This document shows, in pieces, positions 1-12,771 of a stretch of 64,000 nucleotides of DNA. The DNA is taken from sequence record LC494302.1; one strand, written 5' to 3'. This DNA comes from Escherichia phage SP27. Under the pieces are notes generated by a model that searched no databases, was not told where the DNA came from, and saw only the letters and a program-made list of their open reading frames with translations. Within the stretch, counting starts at the first letter, position 1, and the number at the start of each line of letters is the position of its first letter. The position numbers were made by a program, and so were the translations under genes.

Positions 1-46
1 CAGGTACAATATTTCCGTACTTAACCATTCTTGTAAAAGGTAACAT
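1..46 (-). CDS. 5' end of a leftward gene (partial, continues beyond window start)
   Basis: Minus-strand ATG (rc of 44-46) 7 nt after strong SD AAGGAGGG (rc of 51-58); reads MLPFTRMVKYGNIVP; divergent from the + strand array. Confidence 0.5.
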   Translation of the reverse strand, partial: MLPFTRMVKYGNIVP

Positions 47-94
47 AAATCCCTCCTTATTCATTATATCATATTTACCCCATAAAGAAAACCC

Positions 95-123
95 TTGACA
101 TCCTTTCAGTACTGGTGTACTAT
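95..123 (+). promoter_or_regulatory. sigma70-like promoter of Fam-A array
   Basis: TTGACA 95-100 /17 nt/ TACTAT 118-123; SD AAGGAG 134-139; ATG 149. Confidence 0.65.
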
Positions 124-148
124 AGAAGGAATATAAGGAGAACTACAC

Positions 149-376
149 ATGACAAATACTCTTAAGTACTACCTCAATACTCTAAATGAACTAGAGTACG
201 GGGAATTTCTCGCGGATAGTTCGTGGCTAATTGAGCTAAAAAATTATAATAGTCCAGGATGCACCCTTATGATGAACAATGCAATTGATACCCTCATTGT
301 GAGTATTTTACACAGCAACATCTGCGGGGATAGCAATAAACAATTATCAAAAATCTTAGTACTGCTATCTATATGA
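149..376 (+). CDS. Fam-A mini-protein (divergent first member)
   Basis: 75 aa; SD AAGGAG; LKYYLNTL near N-term, ILVLLSI at C-term. Confidence 0.75.
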   Translation: MTNTLKYYLNTLNELEYGEFLADSSWLIELKNYNSPGCTLMMNNAIDTLIVSILHSNICGDSNKQLSKILVLLSI

Positions 377-576
377 ATATCGAACAGTACTACATCGATG
401 CACTACCAACAAAAGGTCTACGTGAAAGCCTACTGCATACACAAACTAATTTCAAACACCTCAAACGTAGCCCTAAACTCCTGAACTCGTACAGGAATAA
501 TAACATAAGAAATGCTTTACAAGGGGTAGAATGTATGCAATACTATTACATCCTTACCCTATTAATTGAGTACTAA
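373..576 (+). CDS. Fam-A mini-protein
   Basis: 67 aa; ATGA overlap with upstream stop; EQYYIDALP ... YYILTLLIEY. Confidence 0.8.
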   Translation: MNIEQYYIDALPTKGLRESLLHTQTNFKHLKRSPKLLNSYRNNNIRNALQGVECMQYYYILTLLIEY

Positions 577-577
577 T

Positions 578-787
578 ATGAATACTGAACATAAAGAATT
601 CTACACCAAATACCTTAGCAACGAAGAACAATTGTTTCTAAGGAGTGTATCACCTGTAAGTACCAATACTCAATTCGGTAGAGATTGCTTTAATAATTGT
701 ATACGTAGTACTCTAGAAGCAATCGAATGCAATAACAAAAATATTATGTACTCAGGTTTAATAGGACTAATATATTTCTATGAATAA
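578..787 (+). CDS. Fam-A mini-protein
   Basis: ATG in conserved TAATATG junction (track start 566 is TTG, rejected); MNTEHKEFYTKYL ... LIGLIYFYE. Confidence 0.75.
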   Translation: MNTEHKEFYTKYLSNEEQLFLRSVSPVSTNTQFGRDCFNNCIRSTLEAIECNNKNIMYSGLIGLIYFYE

Positions 788-974
788 TCATAAAGATTTC
801 TATTGTAGTAAACTACCCAAACAAGAACAGCTATCATTCTCTTTAGCACCACCTATGAGAAAGGATAATCTGTATTATAATTACGATTTCAGGATGGTGA
901 CACGTTATGCAATAGAACATCAGTTCCCTGAAACTAAGTACCGCTCTATCCTGAACCTCATCTTTAAGTTCTAA
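780..974 (+). CDS. Fam-A mini-protein
   Basis: 64 aa; MNNHKDFYCSKLP ... ILNLIFKF. Confidence 0.8.
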   Translation: MNNHKDFYCSKLPKQEQLSFSLAPPMRKDNLYYNYDFRMVTRYAIEHQFPETKYRSILNLIFKF

Positions 975-1026
975 AAGGTACACCAGGGACCGAGTACTTT
1001 AATATAGTAAGGCTAATTACATTATA

Positions 1027-1212
1027 ATGAATCATATAAGCTACTACTACCAACAACTATCCGACAGAGACAAGTACAGTCACAACTCCCATGTGTGGTA
1101 CTACAAACGCGGCAGTATAAGAGACAAACAACATTACTTCTGTATTTCTATTAAAGAAGCACTGACAACTAAGTACACGTACCGAGCAGTACTTAAACTT
1201 ATTGAAATGTAA
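1027..1212 (+). CDS. Fam-A mini-protein (LKLI subtype)
   Basis: 61 aa; ISYYYQQL ... KYTYRAVLKLIEM. Confidence 0.8.
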   Translation: MNHISYYYQQLSDRDKYSHNSHVWYYKRGSIRDKQHYFCISIKEALTTKYTYRAVLKLIEM

Positions 1213-1222
1213 AGAGAATACT

Positions 1223-1405
1223 ATGAACATTGAATTGTACTTAAGTAAATTACAGCCTGGCGATAGATTCATCTACAATAAGTTCGAATTCAACTACAAG
1301 AACGGGAGCAACAAATATCGTCGAGGATACCTATATACAAGCACAAGAGATGCACAAAACGAAAAGTACACATACAGAGAAGTACTTAAACTAATCTCTA
1401 TTTGA
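1223..1405 (+). CDS. Fam-A mini-protein (LKLI subtype)
   Basis: ATG 1223 (track start 1202 is TTG); MNIELYLSKL ... KYTYREVLKLISI. Confidence 0.75.
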   Translation: MNIELYLSKLQPGDRFIYNKFEFNYKNGSNKYRRGYLYTSTRDAQNEKYTYREVLKLISI

Positions 1406-1413
1406 GGTAATAT

Positions 1414-1599
1414 ATGAATACATTTGAGTACTATACCAATAAACTATCTATGCCTGAAAGATCTCATCTCTATGTGTGGAGAAATGCGTATAAAAGCGGC
1501 AATAAACTTATACAAAGAAATTCCCTTACAGTGTGTACAAATTTAATTAAAGCAGAGTACCGCACATATATTGAAGTACTCAAACTGATAGCAATATAA
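1414..1599 (+). CDS. Fam-A mini-protein (LKLI subtype)
   Basis: 61 aa; MNTFEYYTNKL ... YIEVLKLIAI. Confidence 0.8.
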   Translation: MNTFEYYTNKLSMPERSHLYVWRNAYKSGNKLIQRNSLTVCTNLIKAEYRTYIEVLKLIAI

Positions 1600-1607
1600 G
1601 GTACTCT

Positions 1608-1787
1608 ATGCAAGAATTCTATATCTATAACCTCCAGCACAAAGATAGATACAACTATAATAAATTCCAAAGGTACTACACAGTCGGGAACAAAAGAGAT
1701 AAAAAACGTTATCTACTCTCGTGTACAGTAGAAGCACAAAACGAAAAGTACACGTACAGAGAAGTACTTAAACTAATCTCAATCTAA
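1608..1787 (+). CDS. Fam-A mini-protein (LKLI subtype)
   Basis: 59 aa, below ORF-track cutoff; hand-translated MQEFYIYNLQHKDRY...NEKYTYREVLKLISI; fills array gap. Confidence 0.7.
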   Translation: MQEFYIYNLQHKDRYNYNKFQRYYTVGNKRDKKRYLLSCTVEAQNEKYTYREVLKLISI

Positions 1788-1794
1788 GGTAGAC

Positions 1795-1983
1795 ATGAAC
1801 ACTTTTGAGTACTACTTCAATAAACTAAACCACATAGAACAAAGTATGCACAACTCATTTATTCAGCACCATCAATCATCTGCACATGGAATTAAAAATA
1901 TATCGATTGAGATTATCACTACCCGTGTACAGTCATCTGAACGTTATATGTATATTGATGTACTGAAACTCATCTCTATGTAA
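1795..1983 (+). CDS. Fam-A mini-protein (LKLI subtype)
   Basis: 62 aa; MNTFEYYFNKL ... YIDVLKLISM. Confidence 0.8.
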   Translation: MNTFEYYFNKLNHIEQSMHNSFIQHHQSSAHGIKNISIEIITTRVQSSERYMYIDVLKLISM

Positions 1984-1991
1984 GGAATAAT

Positions 1992-2171
1992 ATGCAAGAA
2001 TACTATATAGAACACATAAGCATTAAAGACCGTTTCATGTACGACACCTTCGTGAAGTACTACAACCTGGCAACTAACAGTACTAAAAATATTAATCTCA
2101 ATAGCTGCATTCATCACGCACTAACAAAAGATAATCCCTTCAGGGAAATCCTCGCACTAGCATCTGTATAA
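1992..2171 (+). CDS. Fam-A mini-protein
   Basis: 59 aa, below track cutoff; hand-translated MQEYYIEHISIKDRF...FREILALASV. Confidence 0.65.
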   Translation: MQEYYIEHISIKDRFMYDTFVKYYNLATNSTKNINLNSCIHHALTKDNPFREILALASV

Positions 2172-2181
2172 AGGAAACCAA

Positions 2182-2841
2182 ATGAAACTTAATGCACACA
2201 GCAAACAATACCTTAAGCACTTTAAGTACCTCAACAGTATTCAAGCAGAATCTATTACATCTGCATATACGTATCACCCAAATGTACTAAAGAAACGAAA
2301 TAAAAAGAAAAAATCCAGAAATGTTCTCGTATCTAAGAACCTCAAATCGTACTTGAAGAAAAATAATATAGCTCTTGCTTTTATTAATATCTATAATACT
2401 GATTTAAAAGTATTGAGTACTAATACCAGCACAAAAGCACTAAAGAATGCATCTATCTATATACACATGGATAATATCCCGTGCACTATAATTCTATCTT
2501 TCGGGAATGTATACTTCTTCGGGAATTGTAATAGCACCCATGATATCAGTACTGCACAATTCCAAATCGGCGATATGTACTGCATGGGTTCAGAAAAAAT
2601 ACACGATAACATGCACTTCTTCCAAAAGCAACGTACTAACGAAACTGATACAGTACTGCAATTCCTCAAAGAATTACAAGGCAAAGAATTATCAGAAGAA
2701 GATCTATTCATGTACAGTACTGTAATCGATAATCCAGAACTCTATAAAAACGCGTACAATCTAACAAAACATGTACAGGAACTTATCAGTACTGATAAGA
2801 AATTTCATCACCTCATTACGTATATTTCAAACTATGTATAA
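2182..2841 (+). CDS. Fam-C-like protein embedded in Fam-A array
   Basis: 219 aa; SD AAGGAA; carries LSEEDLFMYSTVID = Fam-C core with Q replaced by M; Lys-rich patch KKRNKKKKSR. Confidence 0.8.
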   Translation: MKLNAHSKQYLKHFKYLNSIQAESITSAYTYHPNVLKKRNKKKKSRNVLVSKNLKSYLKKNNIALAFINIYNTDLKVLSTNTSTKALKNASIYIHMDNIPCTIILSFGNVYFFGNCNSTHDISTAQFQIGDMYCMGSEKIHDNMHFFQKQRTNETDTVLQFLKELQGKELSEEDLFMYSTVIDNPELYKNAYNLTKHVQELISTDKKFHHLITYISNYV

Positions 2842-3016
2842 AGAATACTACAAAGATAAAATCCCAATGCATCTACAACACCATATACCAAACGTTGCAT
2901 TGGGTATCAAAGATCACGCAAAGATAATGTTCCAACAATGTACTAAGTACACGCTCATATACGATGATAATCCATATATGCTGTACTACGTAGTAATGCT
3001 AACATTCAGGTACTAA
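2834..3016 (+). CDS. Fam-A mini-protein
   Basis: ATG 2834 overlapping upstream stop (track start 2771 rejected); MYKEYYKDKIP ... VVMLTFRY. Confidence 0.75.
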   Translation: MYKEYYKDKIPMHLQHHIPNVALGIKDHAKIMFQQCTKYTLIYDDNPYMLYYVVMLTFRY

Positions 3017-3017
3017 T

Positions 3018-3197
3018 ATGAATACTTATAAAGAATTCTACCTCTCGTACCTTAATTCCGATATAGTAACATCCAATACATTCAGTACTAAAATTATCTA
3101 TAATGAATTAATGAAAGAATGTATTAAAGGTGCTATTAACCCTAAAGATACGTATGACTTGTACTATGCAGTACTAACCCTTGTTTTCACGAAATAA
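3018..3197 (+). CDS. Fam-A mini-protein
   Basis: 59 aa, below track cutoff; TAATATG junction; hand-translated MNTYKEFYLSYL...YYAVLTLVFTK. Confidence 0.7.
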   Translation: MNTYKEFYLSYLNSDIVTSNTFSTKIIYNELMKECIKGAINPKDTYDLYYAVLTLVFTK

Positions 3198-3205
3198 CAC
3201 ATAAT

Positions 3206-3397
3206 ATGAATAACCACAAAGAATACTACATAGAGAAACTCCCAATGTATCTCCAACACCTTGTACCAACAGAACCATTGGGTATAGAAAAAAACTACGA
3301 AAAAGACTACTTCATTCAGTGCACTAAATCCTCGATATATATTGAAGACTATAATCGAGTACTGTATCACATCCTTTTACTAATATATAGGTACTAA
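3206..3397 (+). CDS. Fam-A mini-protein
   Basis: 63 aa; MNNHKEYYIEKLP ... ILLLIYRY. Confidence 0.85.
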   Translation: MNNHKEYYIEKLPMYLQHLVPTEPLGIEKNYEKDYFIQCTKSSIYIEDYNRVLYHILLLIYRY

Positions 3398-3398
3398 T

Positions 3399-3581
3399 AT
3401 GCACAAAGAATACTACACACAATTTCTCCCCAGCATTTTTGAACACTACGCCAGATACAAAGTCCCTATGGATAACGATTTGGCAGTACTGGGATTCAAT
3501 AACTGCATAGAACGAAGTATAGAAAATAGTAGTAGTTATGACCAGCTATATAACACTATCCTACTTATATTCAGGTACTAA
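3399..3581 (+). CDS. Fam-A mini-protein
   Basis: 60 aa; TAATATG junction; MHKEYYTQFLP ... ILLIFRY. Confidence 0.85.
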   Translation: MHKEYYTQFLPSIFEHYARYKVPMDNDLAVLGFNNCIERSIENSSSYDQLYNTILLIFRY

Positions 3582-3582
3582 C

Positions 3583-3771
3583 ATGCATAAAGAATACTAC
3601 ACAAAATATTTCCCAATGTACCTCAGAACTAATCTATTAGATAAACCTCGCGGTATCAATGCACAAAATGATAAAGTGTATTTTACTATGTGCACTAAAG
3701 CATGTATACTAGATTTTGACAGCTACCATCGAGTACTGTATCATACCCTGTACCTAGCTTTCGTATTCTAA
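3583..3771 (+). CDS. Fam-A mini-protein
   Basis: ATG 3583 right after upstream stop (track start 3538 rejected); MHKEYYTKYFP ... LYLAFVF. Confidence 0.8.
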   Translation: MHKEYYTKYFPMYLRTNLLDKPRGINAQNDKVYFTMCTKACILDFDSYHRVLYHTLYLAFVF

Positions 3772-3780
3772 GAGAACAAT

Positions 3781-3966
3781 ATGCATAAAGAATTCTACTT
3801 AAGCCATCTGGATCTAAACTCCCAAATGCTTATACCACTAATCCCAATAGATATCAAGGATAAGAAAAATACCGAACAATTCATTTACCATACACAGTGT
3901 GCGATCACCCCAAATTACATTCCATATGAATTGTACTACATTATCGCCCTAATATATAGGTACTAA
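3781..3966 (+). CDS. Fam-A mini-protein
   Basis: 61 aa; MHKEFYLSHL ... IIALIYRY. Confidence 0.85.
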   Translation: MHKEFYLSHLDLNSQMLIPLIPIDIKDKKNTEQFIYHTQCAITPNYIPYELYYIIALIYRY

Positions 3967-3967
3967 T

Positions 3968-4153
3968 ATGCATAGAGAATACTACACACAATTTGTTAAA
4001 GGGAACTACAAACATGCCGTACCCAGAACCCCTTTAAATTCTCATGACCCAAGTACTATATTCTTGTTTAATGACGCAATACGTACAGTACTCAATACTA
4101 AAGATGAAGATGTGCAGTACGTATTCTTACTATTACTTATATACAGACACTAA
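3968..4153 (+). CDS. Fam-A mini-protein
   Basis: 61 aa; TAATATG junction; MHREYYTQFV ... LLLLIYRH. Confidence 0.85.
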   Translation: MHREYYTQFVKGNYKHAVPRTPLNSHDPSTIFLFNDAIRTVLNTKDEDVQYVFLLLLIYRH

Positions 4154-4158
4154 CTAAT

Positions 4159-4341
4159 ATGAATAAAGAACATAAAGAATTCTATATACGAAAACTAACA
4201 TTCGTCCCCGTAAGAATATATAAAGAATGCGACCCAAGATTATACCTATGGCACTTCAATGAGTGCATAAAAGATTCTATATACCATAAGAACTATAAAG
4301 AACAATTGTGCTCAGTACTAACACTAGTACTATCATATTAA
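4159..4341 (+). CDS. Fam-A mini-protein
   Basis: 60 aa; MNKEHKEFYIRKL ... LTLVLSY. Confidence 0.85.
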   Translation: MNKEHKEFYIRKLTFVPVRIYKECDPRLYLWHFNECIKDSIYHKNYKEQLCSVLTLVLSY

Positions 4342-4356
4342 TTAATAGAGAATACT

Positions 4357-4548
4357 ATGTATAAAAACTTCTATATAAGTAAACTAAAAGAAAATGAACA
4401 AGTATGGATTAGATCTATAATTCCACTGGCATTTAATAGATATGCATTTAACAGATGTACCGAGATTGCTATAGACCCTTATAATATTAAAGAGAATGTA
4501 CAGTATAATCAGTACTACTATATCTTAATGCTTATATATAGAAAGTAA
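4357..4548 (+). CDS. Fam-A mini-protein (last member)
   Basis: 63 aa; MYKNFYISKL ... YILMLIYRK. Confidence 0.8.
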   Translation: MYKNFYISKLKENEQVWIRSIIPLAFNRYAFNRCTEIAIDPYNIKENVQYNQYYYILMLIYRK

Positions 4549-4564
4549 TTAAACACATAGAGAC

Positions 4565-4649
4565 AGGGGAAGCTCCTAGTGAACAACCTTTATGTACAGG
4601 CGAATTGTTAAAATTCAGCCTGGACAAATGCGATCACTAGGATTCTCCC
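4565..4649 (+). other. long imperfect hairpin right after Fam-A array
   Basis: GGGGA-agc-TCCTAGTGA 4565-4581 pairs with TCACTAGGA-t-TCTCCCC 4633-4649 (9 + 5 bp, 51-nt loop). Confidence 0.5.
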
Positions 4650-4659
4650 CAGGCTAAAC

Positions 4660-4935
4660 CCCGTAATCATAGGTAGTCATAAGTAATCATATATAAACAT
4701 TTATATGAGCACCGTAGAATCACAGAATGATTATATATGATTCAGTACTGATTAGTATAGACAAGAATGCTCAAGAATGCACGGGAAGGATTCAGAATGA
4801 TTCAGTACTGATATGCCACTAAGTAGGCAGAGGAAGTCTGCCGTACTTTGTAGTTTCCAAGCTCCTTTTCCATTTTGCAAATTACATCAAATGTAATCAA
4901 AAGTAATCACGCAATGATTAGTACTGAATTATTAC
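4660..4935. repeat. cluster of short iterated words (GTAATCA, GAATGATT, AAGAATGC)
   Basis: GTAATCA at 4662, 4682, 4893, 4903; GAATGATT(A/C) three or four times; no ORF. Confidence 0.6.
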
Positions 4936-5185
4936 TTTCACCTTAATTTCAATTACCCCTTTACCCTTCGGGGTAAAATTCAATTACCCCTTGAGGCTCC
5001 AGCAAAAAGTTGGTTAGTACTCCATCCTAAATCTGGATCGTAAAAAATTTGGAGTACCTATGAAATAAAAGTTGGATCTTCGAAAGTTGAAATTTACGTT
5101 GGGACATATAGGATTTGTGGGATATAATGAGTTTTGTAGCGATACAGATTATACGATTTCAGTACTGAATAATGAAAGAAAGCTA

Positions 5186-5318
5186 TTGACATTATGATTC
5201 AGTACTGTATAATGTTCTACATAGGGTGATGAGTTGCTGCGAACAATTCATTTACTCTACCTCCTGTCGTGAGACAGTACAGAAAAGATAGTTCCTCCTG
5301 TGGTGGTACATCTTTTTG
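5186..5318 (+). ncRNA. candidate promoter-driven short RNA (about 100 nt) with two CCUCCUGU motifs
   Basis: TTGACA 5186-5191 /16/ TATAAT 5208-5213; no ORF with SD; CTGTC-GTGA-GACAG hairpin; direct repeat CCTCCTGT(C/G)GTG; T-run 5312-5316. Confidence 0.4.
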
Positions 5319-5544
5319 AACCTCATATGAAAATCGTAATAACAGTACTGATATTAACAGAATGGTGTCAGTACTGATTTTAATCTAAAGCATTATGCCA
5401 CCAGCACAAGTTGGTGGATTCCCTCTAACAGTATTCAGTACTACATGATAGTCTTCATCCTCCTAGGGTAACATAGTGAGGGCTATGATGGCAGTACTGA
5501 ATACTCCCTTTCAAAAGATAGATCTATGGTATAGTACTGACGGA

Positions 5545-5730
5545 TTTTGGGTGTAGTTACCCTGGATGGATTTTGGACGTAGATATGTCTAGCCCTCCAG
5601 AAGTCTGGAAGTAAAGATGGCTATCCATCTAGACGGCTAAACGGATAGATTTCTGGATGGCTGGATGGCTAGACGTTTGGACGGCTAAACGGCTAGATGG
5701 TTACACGTCTGGAAGTATAGACGGCTAAAT
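5545..5730. repeat. iteron-like cluster
   Basis: GACGGCTAAA at 5632, 5680, 5720; CTGGATGG at 5562, 5653, 5661; GTCTGGAAGTA at 5603, 5707; ATTTTGG(G/A)CGT repeated. Confidence 0.7.
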
Positions 5731-5884
5731 CAAAATTTTATTTTGTTTTTTCCAATAGTTCCCCTACCGCGTGGGGATAGTTTCCCCGCAGTATCTGGAG
5801 TTAGATTTTTCTGAATCTGGAATCATTATCTTATAAACTGGGGGCAATGTCAACGGCCTGGACGGATATTTTTAAAAATTTTTT

Positions 5885-5978
5885 CAGTACTGAATTTTGG
5901 GCGTAACTATGCACCCGGTGGGCTTGAGTCTTTCTCGACTTGATGGAACTATTATACAGTACTGAAAAAATAAAGCAA
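5885..5978 (-). ncRNA. short promoter-driven noncoding unit, CCCAYMGGGTGC core (unit a)
   Basis: Minus strand TTGCTT (rc 5973-5978) /16/ TATAAT (rc 5951-5956); reads ...CAAGCCCACCGGGTGCATAGTTACGCCCAAAATT; no ORF. Confidence 0.4.
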
Positions 5979-6008
5979 TACCCTGGAAGCAAAAAAGTTT
6001 TAATTAAT

Positions 6009-6091
6009 TTGCTTGCTATCCTGGGCCGGACTATGGTACTATATTTCAGTACTGAGAAAGTGCGTTTACCTGCTAGGGTGCGGGAGTGTAT
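6009..6091 (+). ncRNA. short promoter-driven noncoding unit (unit b)
   Basis: TTGCTT 6009-6014 /17/ TATGGT 6032-6037; ...CTGCTAGGGTGCGGGAGTGTATCC then T-run 6084-6090. Confidence 0.35.
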
Positions 6092-6194
6092 CCTTTTTTT
6101 ATATCTTGAATTTTGGGCGTAATTCCGCACCCTCTGGGGTTTCCGCTTTCTCGCGTCTATGTAGTAATTATACGCTTTTTCAGGATCAAGTCAA
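6092..6194 (-). ncRNA. short promoter-driven noncoding unit (unit c), convergent with unit b
   Basis: Minus strand TTGACT (rc 6189-6194) /16/ TATAAT (rc 6167-6172); reads ...AACCCCAGAGGGTGCGGAATTACGCCCAAAATT. Confidence 0.4.
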
Positions 6195-6352
6195 TACCTA
6201 AAAACAAAATAATTGAAAATAATTTAACGCGTTTAAACGGCCCGTAACGCCCTGGAATGATTAGAATGGTGCAAATGTATAGCTTAGGTGTATTAATGCG
6301 TTAGAATGCGTCTGAGGCCGTTTTATGGGGTGTAGTAGTGATTTGGTTGATT

Positions 6353-6439
6353 CAGTACTGAATAATAGTACTCCTATATAGAAAGATAGTTCCCCTGGAT
6401 GGTTGCAGTACTGAATAATAGTACTCCTATATAGAAAGA
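6353..6439 (+). repeat. 34-bp direct repeat x2
   Basis: CAGTACTGAATAATAGTACTCCTATATAGAAAGA at 6353-6386 and 6406-6439, 19-bp spacer. Confidence 0.85.
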
Positions 6440-6470
6440 AAACTATTTTAAAAGTATTTGTAGAAAGTAC

Positions 6471-6530
6471 TTGCACCGTACTGATAAAAGCGTATAATGT
6501 TTTACATCGAGAGCGGGAACACTTCCCGCT
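6471..6530 (+). promoter_or_regulatory. early promoter + 5' hairpin cassette
   Basis: TTGCAC 6471-6476 /16/ TATAAT 6493-6498; hairpin AGCGGGAA-CAC-TTCCCGCT 6512-6530. Confidence 0.75.
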
Positions 6531-6553
6531 ACACATTAAGAGAGATTAAAACG

Positions 6554-6916
6554 ATGGCGACTCAAATCAATAAAATCATGCTTAACCTGGTAAACTTCCG
6601 CGATGAGATGAAAGGTCTTCCGGCTGAAACTGTAAAAATTCACATTGCAGCTTATCGGGAACTTATTGCAATGTTGCCGCTTAAGCGTGAACAATACGCC
6701 GCTACTTTGATGCTGGATTCAATGATCCATATAATGATCTCAAATGATTTAACGATGGTTTATCAGTACATGGGCGAAAATTTCGCGGTGTGTAGTAAGC
6801 CAGTACCAGGGATGGCAACAACTGAGGAATTGCACGGCTTAAACTTAAAACAAGATGCATGGGATAATATGCCTCGTTTCCTGGTATGGGCTGACAGTGG
6901 CAAAATTTACAAATAA
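6554..6916 (+). CDS. hypothetical protein
   Basis: 120 aa from MATQINKIM; track start 6497 lies inside promoter/hairpin so rejected; SD AAGAGAG. Confidence 0.8.
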   Translation: MATQINKIMLNLVNFRDEMKGLPAETVKIHIAAYRELIAMLPLKREQYAATLMLDSMIHIMISNDLTMVYQYMGENFAVCSKPVPGMATTEELHGLNLKQDAWDNMPRFLVWADSGKIYK

Positions 6917-6930
6917 GTTTAATAAAGTAC

Positions 6931-6989
6931 TTGCAAACTATGTTTAATGGCGTATAATGTTTTACATCAGGTGGGGAATAGTTCCCCAC
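6931..6989 (+). promoter_or_regulatory. early promoter + 5' hairpin cassette
   Basis: TTGCAA 6931-6936 /16/ TATAAT 6953-6958; hairpin GTGGGGAA-TAG-TTCCCCAC 6971-6989. Confidence 0.75.
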
Positions 6990-7008
6990 TATATAAGAGG
7001 ATTAAAAA

Positions 7009-7248
7009 ATGGCTAAATCAAAAATGTTCTTAGGTCACAAAAACAAAACTCATTGGAATGTAAGCCTGTGGATTAATAACGATGAGGGATTGTATCGGTT
7101 GGCCCTGGACTTTATTGCCGCCAATACTAATCGCAATGATGCGGCCCGTCATATGATGTTATTTTTAGAACAGACTGGACAAGATAAAACACCGGACGGA
7201 TTCAAATATAGCACTACTGCGATCCGTGCGGCGATGGTTGGAATGTAA
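7009..7248 (+). CDS. hypothetical protein (paralog of 9050..9289)
   Basis: 79 aa; shared HKNKTHWNVSLWINN...TPDGFKYSTTAIRAAMVGM. Confidence 0.85.
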   Translation: MAKSKMFLGHKNKTHWNVSLWINNDEGLYRLALDFIAANTNRNDAARHMMLFLEQTGQDKTPDGFKYSTTAIRAAMVGM

Positions 7249-7262
7249 TAGAATTTATTTAA

Positions 7263-7297
7263 AGTACTATCATTTTTTTGCGATAGTACTTTATAAT
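7263..7297 (+). promoter_or_regulatory. promoter with AGTACT inverted repeat (weak -35)
   Basis: AGTACTATC 7263-7271 / GATAGTACT 7282-7290, TATAAT 7292-7297; sister copy at 20303-20331 has TTGACA. Confidence 0.5.
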
Positions 7298-7334
7298 AGT
7301 GTTTTATTCATACACCAACGATAAGGGCAACAGC

Positions 7335-7601
7335 ATGAATATTAAGTATTTTGCGACGCGTGAACAAGCTCGGATCGCCGCACGCCAGGACGGGGCAACG
7401 TTTAAAGATATGGGAGCGGGATCGGCAAGTGGTGAACGTTGGGCCATTGTAAAGCGTAGTACGGCCAGATCTTTACAGTACTGGTTAGCGGCCTTAAAAA
7501 GTCCCGATAGTGTATCGCGTCGAGTGGTAGAAATAAAGCTCGACCGAAAGGGCAACCGCGTGACCGTGTACCGTACTAAAAAGATTGCAGTACTTGAATA
7601 A
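7335..7601 (+). CDS. hypothetical protein (paralog of 20376..20771)
   Basis: 88 aa from MNIKYFATREQARIAARQDGATFKDMG; C-term DRKGNRVTVYRTKK shared with paralog. Confidence 0.8.
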   Translation: MNIKYFATREQARIAARQDGATFKDMGAGSASGERWAIVKRSTARSLQYWLAALKSPDSVSRRVVEIKLDRKGNRVTVYRTKKIAVLE

Positions 7602-7608
7602 AAAGTAC

Positions 7609-7667
7609 TTGCAAACTATGTTTAATGGCGTATAATGTTTTACATCGAGAGCGGGAACACTTCCCGC
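7609..7667 (+). promoter_or_regulatory. early promoter + 5' hairpin cassette
   Basis: TTGCAA 7609-7614 /16/ TATAAT 7631-7636; hairpin GCGGGAA-CAC-TTCCCGC 7651-7667. Confidence 0.75.
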
Positions 7668-7688
7668 CTATAACCTGGAGTAATAAAA

Positions 7689-7919
7689 ATGACTAATATG
7701 TATATGACTGAAGTTAAAACCGTAAAAGATACTACCACGAATAAAACTACTTACTTACAGCGGATCTGTGGTGTATGGCAACGTATCAGCAAATCAAAGT
7801 ACTTTAAATTAACATCATATGCAAATCGTTCGGATTCATTCAGTACTGAAATAAAAGGTAATAAAGTACACCAATACGGCACTTATTATTATTATAGCCT
7901 GGACGCGATTGCAGTATAA
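7689..7919 (+). CDS. hypothetical protein
   Basis: 76 aa; SD GGAG 7677-7680; MTNMYMTEVKT. Confidence 0.8.
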   Translation: MTNMYMTEVKTVKDTTTNKTTYLQRICGVWQRISKSKYFKLTSYANRSDSFSTEIKGNKVHQYGTYYYYSLDAIAV

Positions 7920-7949
7920 GCAGTTTACAAATCTTTACAATTGCCGGTA

Positions 7950-8040
7950 TTGACTTATTTTGTCAGTACTGGCATAATGTATTCATTGGCAGATAAGCCG
8001 TAGCCCATAGGGTGCGGGAGTGTATCTATAGAAAAAGTAG
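7950..8040 (+). ncRNA. short promoter-driven noncoding unit (unit d)
   Basis: TTGACT 7950-7955 /17/ CATAAT 7973-7978; ...AGATAAGCCGTAGCCCATAGGGTGCGGGAGTGTATCTATAG; no ORF. Confidence 0.45.
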
Positions 8041-8122
8041 TTTAGTATAGTTACAATTGTGCACCCGGTGGGTTAGCTGTTGTCATGGGGTATATTATGC
8101 CAGTACTTGATAATGCTGTCAA
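8041..8122 (-). ncRNA. short promoter-driven noncoding unit (unit e), convergent with unit d
   Basis: Minus strand TTGACA (rc 8117-8122) /17/ CATAAT (rc 8094-8099); reads ...GCTAACCCACCGGGTGCACAATTGTAACTATAC. Confidence 0.45.
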
Positions 8123-8169
8123 TACTTTTTTTTTAATATTCAGTACTGAAAACTATTTTTAAAAAGTAC

Positions 8170-8197
8170 TTGCAAACTATGTTTAAAGGCGTATAAT
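8170..8197 (+). promoter_or_regulatory. early promoter (upstream of conserved leader)
   Basis: TTGCAA 8170-8175 /16/ TATAAT 8192-8197. Confidence 0.7.
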
Positions 8198-8203
8198 GTT
8201 TTA

Positions 8204-8287
8204 CATCAGGACGGGGAACGAAATAAGTAACTTCCCGTTAAGTAGCCCAGGAGTAAGGCACACGAAAAACTCCCCTGATAAAATAGT
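8204..8287 (+). ncRNA. conserved leader or short RNA of about 80 nt between tandem promoters
   Basis: No ATG; hairpin ACGGGGAA...TTCCCGT; near-identical copy at 19180-19260 with a compensated stem. Confidence 0.45.
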
Positions 8288-8315
8288 TTGACAATTGTTT
8301 TTAAAAGCGTATAAT
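8288..8315 (+). promoter_or_regulatory. sigma70-like promoter
   Basis: TTGACA 8288-8293 /16/ TATAAT 8310-8315; ATG 8348. Confidence 0.7.
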
Positions 8316-8347
8316 ACTTACATCAACTACTGAATGAGGGTTACAAA

Positions 8348-8959
8348 ATGAAAACTATCACTACTACTACTTATGTTATGGCTTTTTCTGAATTGAACGC
8401 AGAACAACAAACGTCAGCTATCGAACTGGTTCGGGAACGTGAAAAAAACTTAAACGATGATTATTTTTCTGAAAGTGAAATTGAATACTATAAAGAAACA
8501 GTACTACCGGAATATGGCATTAATGACGCTGAAATACAATTCAGTGGCTTTTGGTCCCAGGGTGACGGTGCATCAATCAGTACTGACCACGTTGACGCAG
8601 TGAAGTTTTTACGCAAGGTAAGAGCATTAACTAAGTATCGCTCAATCCGTCACTTGCTGAATGAAGATGATTTGGCGATGAGTGTAAAGCGTTCGCACTC
8701 CCACTACTCGCATGAGAATACTGTAAGCGGGTACATTGAATCGGCTTACACTGATTTAACCGCAAAACAAGAAACGTTAGTTAATGAGCTTGAGGAACTA
8801 CTCACTGAAACTATTCGTGAATTATCCCGCAAGTTGTACCGTGATTTAGAGAATGCATATGAGGATCAATTCACTACTGAAAACATTACGGCACTGATTG
8901 AGGGTAACGAATATCAATTCAATGTTATTGATGGAGTAGTAGAATCAATCGAATATTAA
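8348..8959 (+). CDS. hypothetical protein
   Basis: 203 aa; SD GAGGG; acidic; contains FSGFWSQGDGA motif that I cannot assign to a named family. Confidence 0.85.
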   Translation: MKTITTTTYVMAFSELNAEQQTSAIELVREREKNLNDDYFSESEIEYYKETVLPEYGINDAEIQFSGFWSQGDGASISTDHVDAVKFLRKVRALTKYRSIRHLLNEDDLAMSVKRSHSHYSHENTVSGYIESAYTDLTAKQETLVNELEELLTETIRELSRKLYRDLENAYEDQFTTENITALIEGNEYQFNVIDGVVESIEY

Positions 8960-8971
8960 TTTAAAAAGTAC

Positions 8972-9031
8972 TTGCAAACTAAGTTTAAAAGCGTATAATA
9001 CTTTATATCGAGGCGGGGAGTGGTTCCCCGC
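8972..9031 (+). promoter_or_regulatory. early promoter + 5' hairpin cassette
   Basis: TTGCAA 8972-8977 /16/ TATAAT 8994-8999; hairpin GCGGGGA...TCCCCGC 9013-9031. Confidence 0.75.
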
Positions 9032-9049
9032 TCAAACGAGGATTTAAAA

Positions 9050-9289
9050 ATGGCTAGTACTAAAACTTACAACGGACACAAAAACAAAACTCATTGGAAT
9101 GTAAGCCTTTGGATTAATAACGGTGAGTCATTGTATCGGCTTGCTCAAAGTTGCATCGCACAAAGTAGAACTAAAGATATTGCTGCGGAATGTATGTACC
9201 GCAGATTAAAAGCCAACGGTACTACTACAACGCCGGACGGCTTTAAGTATAGCACTACTGCGATCCGTGCTGCAATGGTTGGAATGTAA
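9050..9289 (+). CDS. hypothetical protein (paralog of 7009..7248)
   Basis: 79 aa from MASTKTYNGHKNKTHWNVSLWINN; track start 9020 runs through hairpin. Confidence 0.85.
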   Translation: MASTKTYNGHKNKTHWNVSLWINNGESLYRLAQSCIAQSRTKDIAAECMYRRLKANGTTTTPDGFKYSTTAIRAAMVGM

Positions 9290-9328
9290 TATTCAGTACT
9301 GAGATAATGGCGGGAACTATTACCCGCC
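9279..9328 (+). promoter_or_regulatory. weak promoter + 5' hairpin
   Basis: TTGGAA 9279-9284 /18/ GATAAT 9303-9308; hairpin GGCGGG...CCCGCC 9309-9328. Confidence 0.45.
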
Positions 9329-9346
9329 TTTACTGAGGGTTATCTA

Positions 9347-9634
9347 ATGAGTAAAGTAATAAAGTACAATGTGTTAAGCAAATCATTGTCTATCAGTGAA
9401 TGCACCGATGGTTTTTGGATGTACGATGAAACGCGTGGCATGAATTTAGCTATGCGTGCAAAAACTGCTGAGGCGGCGTATATTCAAGCACTGGAATACT
9501 ACCAGGAACGTTTGAAGGAAGTAGAAGAAGATTATAAAAGCCTCAAAGCGAAAGTAGATCATTTCGTCGGTCAATTCGTGGAAGACAACGACGAGGACGG
9601 GCACTACTGCGACCGTTGCGGATCTTACAGTTAA
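9347..9634 (+). CDS. hypothetical protein
   Basis: 95 aa; SD GAGGG; coiled-coil-like middle; C-term HYCDRCGSYS. Confidence 0.8.
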   Translation: MSKVIKYNVLSKSLSISECTDGFWMYDETRGMNLAMRAKTAEAAYIQALEYYQERLKEVEEDYKSLKAKVDHFVGQFVEDNDEDGHYCDRCGSYS

Positions 9635-9651
9635 GTACTAAGGATTATATA

Positions 9652-9864
9652 ATGAGTGATTTAATTGAACGTATCAAAGAGCTTGAAGAAAAAGAATTGC
9701 AGTTGATCGGGTTACGGAATAAAGTATTCCATGATTTAGGTGGCTTTATTAATGCCTGGGATAGTGGCGATCCTGATGCGTTACCTGCTAACCGCCAGGC
9801 GATGATCAATGATGTGCGTGGTGTCTTTGATTATGTTTTAAAAGTACTAGACACTAAGCAATAA
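9652..9864 (+). CDS. hypothetical protein
   Basis: 70 aa from MSDLIERIKELEEKE; SD AAGGA; track start 9616 overlaps upstream gene. Confidence 0.75.
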   Translation: MSDLIERIKELEEKELQLIGLRNKVFHDLGGFINAWDSGDPDALPANRQAMINDVRGVFDYVLKVLDTKQ

Positions 9865-9875
9865 AGGCGTATAAT
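9848..9875 (+). promoter_or_regulatory. sigma70-like promoter
   Basis: TAGACA 9848-9853 /16/ TATAAT 9870-9875. Confidence 0.55.
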
Positions 9876-9925
9876 ACTTTATATTGGTACTGACAAACAT
9901 TATAAGCGATGCAGGAGCTTTAATC

Positions 9926-10111
9926 ATGACAACATTATCTGAGGTTATCCGCGATCAAGCTGCAAAGGCTGGAATGACTGTTATCAATGTAGGGATCAAG
10001 ATTGAGATCTCCCCTAACGAGTTGCAAGGGATTCCCGATCCTACTAGCTGGGATCGTGCTGGGCGAATGATGAGTAATGCTTCATTACTGGACGGTACAA
10101 AATTTAATTAA
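9926..10111 (+). CDS. hypothetical protein
   Basis: 61 aa from MTTLSEVIRDQAAKAG; SD GCAGGAG 8 nt upstream; track start 9884 would precede the likely TSS. Confidence 0.7.
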   Translation: MTTLSEVIRDQAAKAGMTVINVGIKIEISPNELQGIPDPTSWDRAGRMMSNASLLDGTKFN

Positions 10112-10118
10112 AAAGTAC

Positions 10119-10178
10119 TTGCAATTAGTTTTCAGTACTGTATAATGGTTTACATCAAAGGGAGAAATGGTTCTCCCT
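10119..10178 (+). promoter_or_regulatory. early promoter + 5' hairpin cassette
   Basis: TTGCAA 10119-10124 /16/ TATAAT 10141-10146; hairpin AGGGAGAA-ATGG-TTCTCCCT 10159-10178. Confidence 0.75.
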
Positions 10179-10196
10179 GGTAATGAGGAAAATACA

Positions 10197-10418
10197 ATGG
10201 CTAATATCACTACTCTTTCCCAACTGGAAGCACTGGTTAAATCTATGCGGGAACATGCCGACAAAATCGGCGTACAAGATCCAGCCGTTTGCTTCTGCGA
10301 CGAATTGAATGATGATACACTGGTAATAGCAGAAGTCCAGGACGTTTCTAACTATTCCTCGCGTTACACTGGCGGCGTAGCAAATAAAGGTGACTTCTGT
10401 TTATACCTTACAAAATAA
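10197..10418 (+). CDS. hypothetical protein
   Basis: 73 aa from MANITTLSQLEAL; SD GAGGAA. Confidence 0.8.
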   Translation: MANITTLSQLEALVKSMREHADKIGVQDPAVCFCDELNDDTLVIAEVQDVSNYSSRYTGGVANKGDFCLYLTK

Positions 10419-10421
10419 CAA

Positions 10422-10455
10422 CGCGGGGAGATAATAACTCCCCGTTACTTTTTCA
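10422..10455. terminator. intrinsic terminator (possibly bidirectional)
   Basis: CGGGGAG 10424-10430 / CTCCCCG 10438-10444 then TTACTTTTT; A/T-rich on both sides. Confidence 0.7.
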
Positions 10456-10464
10456 GTACTGAAT

Positions 10465-10553
10465 CATTTAATAGACGGATCTCGGCACCCGGTGGGTTAG
10501 TGACTGTTTCGTCTTGATGTAGTAATTATGCCAGTACTGGATGCACTTGTCAA
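10465..10553 (-). ncRNA. short promoter-driven noncoding unit (unit f)
   Basis: Minus strand TTGACA (rc 10548-10553) /17/ CATAAT (rc 10525-10530); reads CATCAAGACGAAACAGTCACTAACCCACCGGGTGCCGAG. Confidence 0.45.
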
Positions 10554-10586
10554 CAACTATTTTTCAAATACTTTTTATTAAAATAC

Positions 10587-10641
10587 TTGCAATTAGTTTT
10601 TAAACGCGTATAATGTTTTGCATAGGGGGAGCGGTTCCCCT
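10587..10641 (+). promoter_or_regulatory. early promoter + 5' hairpin cassette
   Basis: TTGCAA 10587-10592 /16/ TATAAT 10609-10614; hairpin AGGGGGA-GCGG-TTCCCCT 10624-10641. Confidence 0.75.
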
Positions 10642-10661
10642 GGTAACTAAGGAATAATAAA

Positions 10662-10898
10662 ATGCTTGAACAAATCAAATCAACGTCTGCGAATGTAACG
10701 GGAACGGTTGTACACTTTACTAGTGATGAATCGCGGGGCGTTCCCTATTGTGCTGTACATGTAAACACTGATGGCAACTACTGGTTTACGGTTTACGGAT
10801 CATATTCATTTGGACGGCCAGGGCATCAAAAAATTCTGGATAAAGTACAACCAACGGGTAAAAATATCACTGCCGAAATGTTTTATAAAAAATCATAA
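10662..10898 (+). CDS. hypothetical protein
   Basis: 78 aa; SD AAGGAA; MLEQIKSTSANVTG. Confidence 0.8.
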   Translation: MLEQIKSTSANVTGTVVHFTSDESRGVPYCAVHVNTDGNYWFTVYGSYSFGRPGHQKILDKVQPTGKNITAEMFYKKS

Positions 10899-10903
10899 AG
10901 TAC

Positions 10904-10963
10904 TTGCAATTAGTTTTTAGTACTGTATAATATTTTACATCGCAAGGGGAAACGGTTTCCCCT
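10904..10963 (+). promoter_or_regulatory. early promoter + 5' hairpin cassette
   Basis: TTGCAA 10904-10909 /16/ TATAAT 10926-10931; hairpin AGGGGAA-ACGGT-TTCCCCT 10945-10963. Confidence 0.75.
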
Positions 10964-10982
10964 GGTAACTAAGGATAATCAA

Positions 10983-11282
10983 ATGAAAATTGCAATCATC
11001 GCCCTGGCTTTATCTGTTTCCTCTTTCGCTGTTAATGCGTCGTTAGATGTAAGTAGTGAAAAATTCATTCAGTGCACTGTTGCAATGACCGATGAAAGAA
11101 CTGGCGAGATTGTATTAAAGGATTTAGAGATCCAGCCGGAAGCATTTAAAAACGGCCCGTTCCATGAAGAAGACGAAAACGGTAGCACGACAATTTATTA
11201 TGATGCCAGTTCCAAGCGTGGATCGGTCACTGTAATGGATACTGAGAAAGTAACACACACAGGCGTTATTAATTGCCGTTGA
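10983..11282 (+). CDS. secreted or periplasmic protein (Sec-type signal peptide)
   Basis: 99 aa; MKIAIIALALSVSSFAVNA then SLDV: basic N-term, hydrophobic core, A-x-A-like site. Confidence 0.8.
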   Translation: MKIAIIALALSVSSFAVNASLDVSSEKFIQCTVAMTDERTGEIVLKDLEIQPEAFKNGPFHEEDENGSTTIYYDASSKRGSVTVMDTEKVTHTGVINCR

Positions 11283-11303
11283 TAGATACTACGGGGTAAC
11301 ATC

Positions 11304-11534
11304 ATGACTAAGCGAATTGTTTTACTTAACGAAAGCAGTACTACACAACTACTTAACGCCGTGCATTATGATATTGAAACGAGCGTTAATCTTATCAGTA
11401 CTGTAGTACTGTTGGACACTGGAAAGGTCGCCAATGATAAAGCGATTGCAGGTATATTAACGGATCTTGAGCCTGGTAGCAGTGCACCCATAACGTTAAA
11501 TGGTAAAGTGTTTAATATTTTACTCACTGATTAA
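11304..11534 (+). CDS. hypothetical protein
   Basis: 76 aa; SD ACGGGG; MTKRIVLLNESS. Confidence 0.75.
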   Translation: MTKRIVLLNESSTTQLLNAVHYDIETSVNLISTVVLLDTGKVANDKAIAGILTDLEPGSSAPITLNGKVFNILLTD

Positions 11535-11540
11535 GTACAT

Positions 11541-11566
11541 AGCCCACCAGGTGGGCTTTTTTGTTT
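11541..11566 (+). terminator. intrinsic terminator
   Basis: AGCCCAC-CAG-GTGGGCT 11541-11557 followed by TTTTTTGTTTTT. Confidence 0.85.
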
Positions 11567-11616
11567 TTATAGTATCGTAGTACTGAGATACTTTGAAAAT
11601 AGTTTTAAGAAAGTAG

Positions 11617-11644
11617 TTGACATTACCACAGAAAAGCGTAGAAT
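11617..11644 (+). promoter_or_regulatory. sigma70-like promoter with long leader
   Basis: TTGACA 11617-11622 /16/ TAGAAT 11639-11644; leader of about 115 nt begins CATCAAGACGGGGAGCAC, loosely like the 8204 and 19180 leaders. Confidence 0.6.
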
Positions 11645-12763: not shown

Positions 12764-12771
12764 AAAAGTAC

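Follow-up and report, generated by a model that had tools for sequence, protein, structure and literature searches.

The window analysed here is a 64,000-nt stretch of Escherichia phage SP27 (sequence record LC494302.1), in whose numbering all positions are given, and the element in question is a segment of about 1.9 kb at 4549-6470 (the hub), between the Fam-A array of small genes (1-4548) and the first early operon. An earlier note, made from the letters alone, had described the hub as ORF-free, packed with repeats and small transcription units, and a candidate origin, packaging or regulatory centre. In a megablast search, positions 4300-6800 matched 43 phage records with 80-99% identity, all of them Asteriusvirus-type jumbo coliphages or Salmonella phages (e.g. 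PBECO4, 121Q, G17 and JP4). The window is Asteriusvirus DNA (PBECO4/121Q/G17-like jumbo coliphages), of the Rak2-like myovirus lineage, a distant relative of T4. An identity as a Goslar-like phage, which would form a nucleus and bring RNA polymerases of its own, was ruled out, since the records are Asteriusvirus and relatives use the host polymerase. In the literature, the relative CBB has host-type (RpoD-like) early promoters and long terminal repeats, and PA5oct has a 39 kb direct terminal repeat (DTR) that is transcribed early in dependence on host RNA polymerase and contains two abundant non-coding RNAs (ncRNAs).

Each of the elements listed in the earlier note is present at or near the place it gave, and the hub is indeed free of recognizable genes. 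Six ORFs of 41-99 aa can be drawn in it, and they were rejected as genes because none has a PHROG family, whereas both flanking genes have one (unknown-function families only); the curated G17 record annotates no gene across 4549-6470. The claim that no ORF in the hub has a Shine-Dalgarno sequence (SD) needs one correction, since a conserved SD and start codon precede a 5-codon mini-ORF on the minus strand; the hub is otherwise non-coding. The ORF listed at 6497-6916 has a mechanical start, an ATG at 6497 that lies inside a promoter -10 element (TATAATG), whereas translation of the first repeat gene really begins with the ATG at 6554, as in the CRJP21 annotation. An apparent 1 kb insertion of PBECO4 and G17 lies in downstream genes, outside the hub. 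Rfam 15 gave no match at the gathering score over the whole window and chance-level matches only at E up to 5 on 4400-8400, and a tRNA scan of the window found none. A scan of the hub for host-factor motifs gave a single IHF-like match and no DnaA box, LexA box, SlmA site or matS. Its features, with the repeat that starts within it, are as follows.

4549-4821: unique DNA before the DTR, 273 bp; records that include the DTR begin at 4822
4561-4655 (+): long imperfect hairpin directly after the last Fam-A gene; -21.2 kcal/mol, z = -5.6, none of 200 shuffles as good
4794-4847: predicted terminase cut-site region, cut between 4821 and 4822; invariant GCAGTACTGATATGCCACTA and AGTAGGCAG
4822-25750 (+): DTR, 20,929 bp; its ends are the record ends of relatives
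5016-5060: inverted repeat AGTACTCCATCCTAAATC...TTTGGAGTACC, also in fENko-Kae01 (87-135), pEa_SNUABM_12 (~125) and GAP32
5186-5213 (+): promoter P1, TTGACA-16-bp-TATAAT, 12 of 12 consensus positions, CAGTACTG in the spacer
5343-5376 (+): hairpin from two CAGTACTG copies followed by a T-rich tail (terminator-like); z = -3.1
5398-5417: Chi-bearing hairpin CCACCAGC-acaa-GtTGGTGG, with Chi on the minus strand at 5398-5405, +577 from the left end
5544-5570 (+): conserved motif ATTTTGGGTGTAGTTACCCTGGATGG, directly before the array; counterparts in fENko-Kae01 (647), pEa_SNUABM_12 (641) and GAP32 (3434)
5599-5726: period-8 tandem array (the "iteron block"); 15 boxes pass the MetJ threshold, 14 of them contiguous (5615-5726)
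5738-5765 (-): SD AGGGGA (5765-5760), then the 5-codon mini-ORF TTG-GAA-AAA... (5755-5738); conserved
5772-5788: covarying hairpin between the conserved flanks CCGCG and GCAGTATC; 11 lineages
5825-5853 (-): leftward promoter TTGACA-17-bp-GATAAT, reading into hairpin, mini-ORF and array
5889-5978 (-): unit a, TTGCTT-16-bp-TATAAT, GUC-GAGAAA-GAC and CCCACCGGGTGC; covariance-model match 5889-5952, E = 1e-8
6013-6103 (+): unit b+, TTGCTA-18-bp-TACTAT, hairpin and CCTGCTAGGGTGC; covariance-model match 6039-6103, E = 0.06
6105-6194 (-): unit b-, TTGACT-16-bp-TATAAT, CGC-GAGAAA-GCG and CCCCAGAGGGTGC; convergent with b+, model match 6105-6168
6353-6439 (+): two 34-bp direct repeats, 100% identical (6353-6386 and 6406-6439), upstream of the promoter of the first gene
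6466-6553 (+): early promoter of the first DTR gene, AGTAC|TTGCAC-16-bp-TATAAT, then a 5'-UTR hairpin, SD and ATG at 6554

Comparison with the record ends of relatives places the left physical end of the chromosome, where the DTR begins, at 4822 and so within the hub. This base is the first of the CRJP21, fEgEco12, BF17, E9.1 and vB_Ec-M-J records and the last of G17 (AGTAGGCAGAGGAAGTCTGCC...), and 25750 is the first base of G17 and the last of fEgEco12. PhageTerm located the termini of fEgEco12, restriction digests confirmed them, and the DTR came to 20,993 bp (fEgEco12 paper). In G17, whose linear record repeats its positions 1-20668 at the right end (350150-370817), read coverage pointed to a terminal redundancy of ~20 kb. 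The vB_Ec-M-J record has an annotated DTR. With record ends at both 4822 and 25750, the window assembly therefore represents a collapsed repeat, and collapsed assemblies of this kind can mislead annotation by hiding a terminal repeat. The hub thus joins 273 bp of unique DNA, found in the virion only beside the right-hand DTR copy, to the opening 1.65 kb of the DTR, with the cut site between them. A fixed physical end, as looked for at a terminase cut site, lies at 4822 judging from these relatives, from which the position of the terminus was already known and is not new. Four features described below were not found in the literature searched: the conserved architecture of the leader, its MetJ-type array, the loading of the repeat with Chi, and the unit family.

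The sequence around the end is strongly constrained. Even 121Q shows no change in 4549-4700 or in the bases immediately preceding the cut, whereas other upstream DNA has diverged. The long hairpin after Fam-A, placed by the earlier note at 4565-4649, has somewhat wider limits, and its sequence is invariant in G17 (of which only the 3' half was recovered), JP4, PBECO4 and 121Q, so no covariation is testable in it. The repeat opens with a terminal hairpin (4822-4847) that folds better than shuffled sequences (z = -4.9). Beside this hairpin and the invariant bases, terminase would cut the concatemers (4821/4822). In fENko-Kae01, pEa_SNUABM_12, Serratia BF, CBB and XbC2, the record or the PhageTerm-defined repeat opens at a homologous TATCYKTTCCTGAAGTC, which has GAAGTC..GTACTT in common with the Asteriusvirus end. 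Upstream of the cut, the window carries at 4785-4795 an extra 10-bp copy of a GGAAGGATTCA-type word relative to G17, JP4, PBECO4 and 121Q. The right boundary (25750/25751) lies in a plain 250-bp intergenic spacer (25599-25847), just after a strong hairpin AAAAAAGTCAAGG...CCCTTGACTTTTTT, and it has no repeats or arrays like those of the left boundary.

Inward from the end, the hub is a leader whose organization is shared across genera. A distant blastn search of the hub found short blocks in other Rak2-like genera, mostly 1-4 kb from the record start; the genome-wide identity of these genera to Asteriusvirus is ~23-30% (table in the fEgEco12 paper). The order of the elements is kept in the window, fENko-Kae01, pEa_SNUABM_12, Yen9-03, GAP32, CBB, Kaldavass, XbC2 and RaK2, at similar distances from the end. 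It runs from a TTGGAGTAC inverted repeat through a consensus promoter, the Chi hairpin, ATTTTGGGYGTA and the period-8 array to TTTTCCAWTAG..CCGCG, a hairpin, GCAGWATC, the leftward promoter, the convergent unit pair, a doubled TATAWAGRAARG and the first gene. The array is missing from fENko-Kae01 and RaK2, which keep most other leader elements. In the other genera, the doubled TATAWAGRAARG was judged by eye, as was a doubled TATAWAGRAARGAAA motif resembling the 34-bp repeats. Within the inverted repeat, the 8-bp arms of the earlier note (GTACTCCA at 5017 and TGGAGTAC at 5050) are a pair that is kept in other genera, with a fold weakly better than shuffles (z = -1.5). The word ATTTTGGGYGTA occurs three times in the hub (5545, 5895 and 6111), and the stretch 6123-6174 matches the Salmonella phages 7t3 and Munch and the Klebsiella phage fENko-Kae01 with 94-96% identity. 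An IMG/VR 16-mer scan with the conserved CCGCACCCTCTRGGGT gave mostly chance matches, the real ones coming from two known jumbo phages only. The leader is non-coding and has an element order conserved across at least five Rak2-like lineages, and as a module of 1.3-1.7 kb it is deeply conserved in Rak2-like jumbo phages.

The leader contains conserved sigma-70 promoters on both strands. Together with the left DNA end, they partly bear out the regulatory and packaging side of the earlier proposal, of which the use of the array as a packaging site is weakened (see below). P1 has positional counterparts in fENko-Kae01 (331-360) and pEa_SNUABM_12 (269-297), and the small peptide encoded after it is, by eye, not conserved between genera. 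The leftward promoter has in other genera the canonical form AAAGTAC|TTGCAT-N17-TAATAT. Its transcript would first pass the hairpin at 5772-5788, in which, over 11 lineages, 89% of cells are paired and five of the six pairs have changed on both sides (equalled by none of 500 shuffles), and then the mini-ORF, whose SD, ATG/TTG and GAA-AA are kept in 13 lineages with ORF lengths of 3-14 codons. Inside the array, the leftward RNA would be C-rich. The early promoter module of the first DTR gene recurs at 6926, 7604 and 8165, and host RNA polymerase would start immediate-early transcription at the leader promoters and at these downstream early modules.

The repeat is also loaded with Chi sites. The window has 11 copies of Chi (5'-GCTGGTGG-3') against 0.35 expected (~30-fold), and ten of these 11 are within the DTR: two on the minus strand (5398 and 12318) and eight on the plus strand (12380, 16377, 17839, 19107, 21179, 22583, 24160 and 24382). 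Chi is active when RecBCD, entering from a nearby DNA end, meets its 3' side. The exact minus-strand copy at 5398-5405, 577 bp from the left end, is therefore correctly oriented for RecBCD entering there, as is the copy at 12318. For entry at the right end the active orientation is that of the eight plus-strand copies, which are 1.4-13.4 kb away from it. The hairpin at 5398-5417 is annotated as a terminator in G17; a perfect Chi/anti-Chi palindrome is found in G17, JP4, PBECO4, CRJP21, fEgEco12, BF17 and E9.1, and at +484 in fENko-Kae01. Several further Chi copies apparently sit in terminator-like hairpins or promoter spacers, judging from their printed sequence contexts. The loading of the repeat recurs in relatives: G17 has ten Chi in the DTR and none in ~24 kb of flanking unique DNA, and fENko-Kae01 has 14 in the DTR (1-19736) vs two in the next 30 kb.

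After injection, RecBCD would enter the free DNA ends, and the left-end Chi and the eight opposite-facing Chi at the other end of the repeat would stop degradation and load RecA. The two repeat copies could then recombine, and the genome would circularize or replication would be primed, as proposed for P1. Clusters of Chi in P1 were reportedly described by Subramaniam and Smith in 2022. There, as here, the virion chromosome is linear and Chi is concentrated in its terminally repeated DNA or close to it, and one P1 study proposes RecBCD/RecA recombination between the repeats and priming of replication (PMC12315714). P1 differs in its headful packaging from pac and its permuted redundancy, whereas in Asteriusvirus an exact 20.9 kb repeat has Chi facing both ends, with the leftmost Chi forming a Chi/anti-Chi hairpin.

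The most unusual element of the leader is the array at 5599-5726. The earlier note saw there an iteron block, and its words are present (GACGGCTAAA three times, at 5632, 5680 and 5720; GTCTGGAAGTA twice; CTGGATGG four times); in truth they are parts of one degenerate tandem array with a period of 8 bp. Its autocorrelation at lags 8, 16, 24 and 32 is 0.55-0.62, compared with 0.26 ± 0.04 in shuffles, and 5599-5733 can be divided into 17 in-register octamers with the consensus RGAYGKCT. This format is that of the operators of the methionine repressor MetJ, which consist of two to five tandem 8-bp met boxes with the consensus AGACGTCT (for these and the taxonomic range of MetJ, see PMC4239095 and PMC3228920). 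For the met-box scan, the published weight matrix and thresholds of Augustus and Spicer were used, which ask for at least one quarter of the consensus score per box (3.1 bits) and at least the consensus score per site (12.6 bits). Of the 17 in-register boxes, 15 pass (3.8-10.7 bits each), and the array total of 100.2 bits is eight times the site threshold. For comparison, the E. coli metJ/metB operator, used as positive control, scored 31.2 bits with four boxes and the next best site in the window 14.3 bits; the maximum was 20.3 bits in 20 shuffled windows and 16.5 bits in 240 kb of unrelated control contigs.

Arrays of 7-15 boxes occupy the same leader position in pEa_SNUABM_12, Yen9-03, GAP32, CBB, Kaldavass and XbC2. 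Outside this lineage, the T7-like coliphage PGT2 has a 9-box array at record positions 38-109, the T7-like phage phiKT likewise has nine boxes, and BLAST found more cases in Aeromonas, Vibrio, Providencia and Klebsiella phages. In the T5-like Vibrio phage Pontus, a 15-box array of 111.7 bits (484-603) precedes DnaA boxes and LexA-like boxes. Arrays of the met-box type thus also occur in phages of other virus families on MetJ-bearing hosts; with the exception of XbC2, the hosts (Enterobacterales, Vibrio and Aeromonas) belong to MetJ-possessing orders, and metJ was retrieved from E. coli. No real MetJ homologue is encoded among 50,697 phage genome records, three matches looking like host DNA. 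Because of the 8-bp period, the matrix score, the MetJ-bearing hosts and the missing phage homologue, we read the array as a MetJ super-operator with predicted binding. It differs from natural MetJ operators in having 14-15 instead of 2-5 boxes (14 of them adjacent and in register), in the bias of its right half-boxes to GGCT, and in its position: it lies 100-230 bp downstream of the leftward promoter, with no overlapping methionine or S-adenosylmethionine (SAM) gene promoter and no met gene nearby. The array may act like an operator or a decoy, but not as a member of the met regulon.

Taken together, the best explanation of the hub, with a probability of roughly 0.8, is that it forms a conserved leader at the left end of the virion chromosome in a Rak2-type jumbo myovirus. 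Several points weigh against this explanation or its parts. The termini were mapped in close relatives (90-97% identical) and not in this isolate, and a documented method stands behind them for fEgEco12 and, by read coverage, G17 only; several records may have copied an earlier start convention. The left and right repeat boundaries have no motif in common, the best shared word being 8 nt long and the alignments as weak as expected for AT-rich DNA. In a simple scan, the number of sigma-70-like sites in the hub (8) did not exceed that in shuffles (9.7), so the promoter case rests on conservation. The plus-strand bias of Chi is partly due to the G-richness of the coding strand, which by our own estimate would put ~64% of copies on the plus strand; the density of Chi, unlike the strand bias, is not expected from this composition. 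XbC2, labelled a Xanthomonas phage, has the array, yet Xanthomonadales lack MetJ, and therefore either the host label or the MetJ reading is in doubt. The first 1,100 positions of its record (OP292654.1) are a leader very similar to that of Erwinia phage Kaldavass, met-box array included. Finally, the met boxes are asymmetric, with GGCT as the right half in about half of them and the same bias in PGT2 and Pontus, so that another ribbon-helix-helix protein may be the ligand.

Proteins of the ribbon-helix-helix class typically bind short tandem repeats, and the array could be the operator of a phage-encoded one, perhaps a 60-100 aa product of the DTR, its likeness to met boxes being incidental. 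The asymmetric GGCT half fits this proposal, since a G at position 6 is found in ~10% of natural MetJ half-boxes; it is nevertheless unlikely, given the 15 boxes above the MetJ threshold, the occurrence of such arrays in three phage groups from different virus families, and the empty search for phage MetJ homologues. Quite unlikely, too, is a role of the array as a pac-like site of the terminase small subunit (TerS), in which a TerS ring would wrap the array and cutting would occur ~0.8 kb away. Five Rak2-like lineages do have the array +670 to +950 from the end, and it lies ~0.1-4 kb from the ends of the records, which may not be physical ends, of the T7-like phages PGT2 and KPV811 and the T5-like phages Pontus and AhSzq-1. 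In phiKT, pVp-1 and PSTCR5, however, it is far from the record end, and the right repeat boundary of the window has none. The TerS role is further weakened because RaK2 and fENko-Kae01, the latter with a PhageTerm-mapped terminus of the same type, keep most leader elements and lack the array. A shared terminase specificity would not be expected in three phage groups of different virus families, whereas what their members have in common is MetJ-possessing host taxa.

The proposal that the hub is an iteron-type replication origin, with its 8-11-mers bound by a phage initiator beside AT-rich melting DNA, was not supported and is very unlikely. Iterons of replication origins are ~17-22 bp long and in phase with the DNA helix, whereas the unit here is 8 bp and the autocorrelation peaks are at 8, 16, 24 and 32 only. 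The hub has no DnaA box (TTWTNCACA), no initiator gene is evident (the flanking genes match unknown-function families only), the array fits the MetJ matrix instead, and fENko-Kae01 and RaK2 do without it. AT-rich tracts flank the array (5727-5760 and 5860-5885) as an unwinding element would require, a feature that is not origin-specific, and origins made of a promoter plus an unwinding element are known in T4-type phages. The GC skew proposed as a check does change sign across 4100-5100, with a cumulative minimum at ~4700-5100 that would fit an origin. It is not diagnostic, because plus-strand genes lie to either side of it and the sign changes just where the chromosome ends and the unusually C-rich Fam-A array lies. 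The ~60-aa genes of this array are on the plus strand, yet their GC skew (-0.2 to -0.3) is opposite to that of the rest of the window. For annotation, a GC-skew minimum here is thus a sign of the chromosome end, which need not be an origin; replication may start from the Chi-rich repeat in a recombination-dependent way.

If the array is a MetJ super-operator, it would bind host MetJ-SAM. As a decoy, it would derepress methionine and SAM synthesis while phage genomes multiply; alternatively, it would form a SAM-sensitive roadblock on the leftward transcript running into it. Some phages without the array have candidate sites for another host repressor in its place. The leaders of fENko-Kae01 and RaK2 carry Fur-box-like repeats instead, with 11 in RaK2 vs 0.6 in shuffles. 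Such repeats (3-5 mismatches to GATAATGATAATCATTATC) lie at 2632-3990 in RaK2, at 711-781, 1040, 2342 and 7309 in fENko-Kae01, and at 475-522 in T5. A tentative generalization, which we hold to be possible and no stronger, is that phages with exact terminal repeats place oversized arrays of host-repressor operators in the first-entering DNA, as decoys or sensors: MetJ sites in the window, in T5-like Vibrio and Aeromonas phages and in PGT2 and phiKT, Fur-like sites in RaK2 and fENko-Kae01, and in T5 DnaA boxes, with LexA-like and Fur-like boxes also scored. If true, titration of repressors by replicating genomes would turn on host methionine/SAM or iron-uptake regulons to the phage's benefit, or early leftward transcription would be gated on the SAM status of the host. 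Either would be a protein-free takeover of host functions, hitherto undescribed. The leader as a whole bears on three tasks that very large phages face in the first minutes after infection, namely the protection of DNA ends, the onset of transcription and the rewiring of host metabolism.

Two well-studied phages offer partial parallels. At the left end of T7, an untranslated leader enters first, with short-repeat arrays followed inward by the strong host-polymerase promoters A1-A3. The Asteriusvirus leader likewise combines short repeats with inward host promoters, and the T7-like phages PGT2 and phiKT carry arrays of the same kind. T7, however, has a terminal repeat of 160 bp vs 20.9 kb, and its short repeats are of the CCTAAAG type with irregular spacing. 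In T5, Repeat Region 3, the injection-stop region, is a 1.2 kb untranslated block that straddles the boundary of repeat and unique DNA by ~270 bp, with a proposed role in stopping injection (Davison, bioRxiv 10.1101/866236). Like the hub, it is rich in direct repeats, inverted repeats and palindromes, shows stronger conservation than the genes beside it and carries sites for a host protein (DnaA boxes); our own scans found in it a LexA-like box and Fur-box-like repeats. In contrast to the hub, the T5 block is at the inner (right) end of the left repeat, has DnaA boxes instead of met boxes and has no period-8 array.

The three core units that the earlier note had seen in the hub are members of a repeat family. 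Its layout is a sigma-70 promoter, a hairpin of 3-4 bp with a G(A/C)GAAA or AGATAA loop, and CCCAYAGGGTGC; the hairpins covary, with 76 double changes equalled in none of 500 shuffles. A covariance model found 11 copies in the window and ten in fENko-Kae01, every one inside the DTR; the absence outside the DTR is the informative point, because nearly all copies are in the training set. Unit a is part of the training alignment and unit b+ is outside it. Beyond the hub, eight units lie in the DTR at 7975-8037 (+), 8039-8102 (-), 10463-10526 (-), 15016-15079 (+), 16690-16753 (+), 19046-19109 (+), 22043-22106 (+) and 24294-24357 (+); the first two form a convergent pair like that of the hub, in a second gene-free block at 7920-8347. 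Many unit promoters are embedded in a terminator-like hairpin (e.g. AAAGGGATTGACTCCGGTCAGTCCCTTTG), the -35 element TTGACT being in the stem of the putative terminator of the upstream gene (window ~15000-15040 and 22030-22070; fENko-Kae01 ~9100, 14060 and 17160).

The units raise the alternative that the hub is mainly a cluster of small ncRNA genes and its repeats are incidental. Three units and P1 lie in the hub, the leader and unit hairpins both covary, and the DTR of PA5oct gives abundant ncRNAs. No canonical terminator follows the units, however, and solo units read into the promoter of the next gene; together with the missing Rfam match, this makes the alternative doubtful. It would also leave the terminus, Chi and the array unexplained, and it complements the left-end leader explanation without replacing it. 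An element with which the units can be compared is the lambda nut or HK022 put site, a promoter-proximal RNA antitermination element. Like these sites, the units have a small hairpin (its G(A/C)GAAA loop is GNRA-like) and a conserved linear box within ~40 nt of the predicted start, upstream of terminator-rich early genes. There is no sequence similarity, an N- or Q-like protein was not identified, and the convergent pairing has no counterpart; the resemblance is a lead only. Two other interpretations were abandoned. A long-range L/R "stem" (6075-6085 with 6125-6135) is not read as an RNA helix, being now two copies of the same box from the convergent units, and its covariation may therefore reflect concerted evolution of the box. 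The CCCTATAGGG box was dismissed as a T7/T3-like promoter, since to our knowledge no single-subunit polymerase gene is known in the Rak2-like group.

Among the minor repeats of the hub, TTCAATTACCCCT occurs twice (4948 and 4979) and is unique to these sites within the window, while the TACCC-TTCG-GGGTA hairpin described between the copies folds no better than shuffles (z = -0.9). The short-word clusters were recovered, with four copies of GTAATCA, three of GAATGATT and two of AAGAATGC; the latter two words are not Fur boxes here, because a scan of the hub at up to five mismatches found none. The count of at least 12 palindromes proved exact, as CAGTACTG occurs 12 times in the hub, but the motif is spread over the whole window (65 copies vs 0.65 expected) and is not hub-specific. 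Its core AGTACT, which is not the SlmA site, occurs 270 times in the window against 18.6 expected (~14-fold), genes included, for example at 108, 2548, 4744 and 5161, with no copies in 26001-30000 and 34001-40000. The density is 3.4/kb in ORFs (in all three frames), 7.5/kb in non-coding DNA and 9.9/kb in the hub, ~2.3-fold above the window average, and the fENko-Kae01 repeat is enriched too. Many copies stand beside promoters: 32 abut the -35 element (AGTAC|TTGnnn), and 30 lie 1-4 nt before the -10 element.

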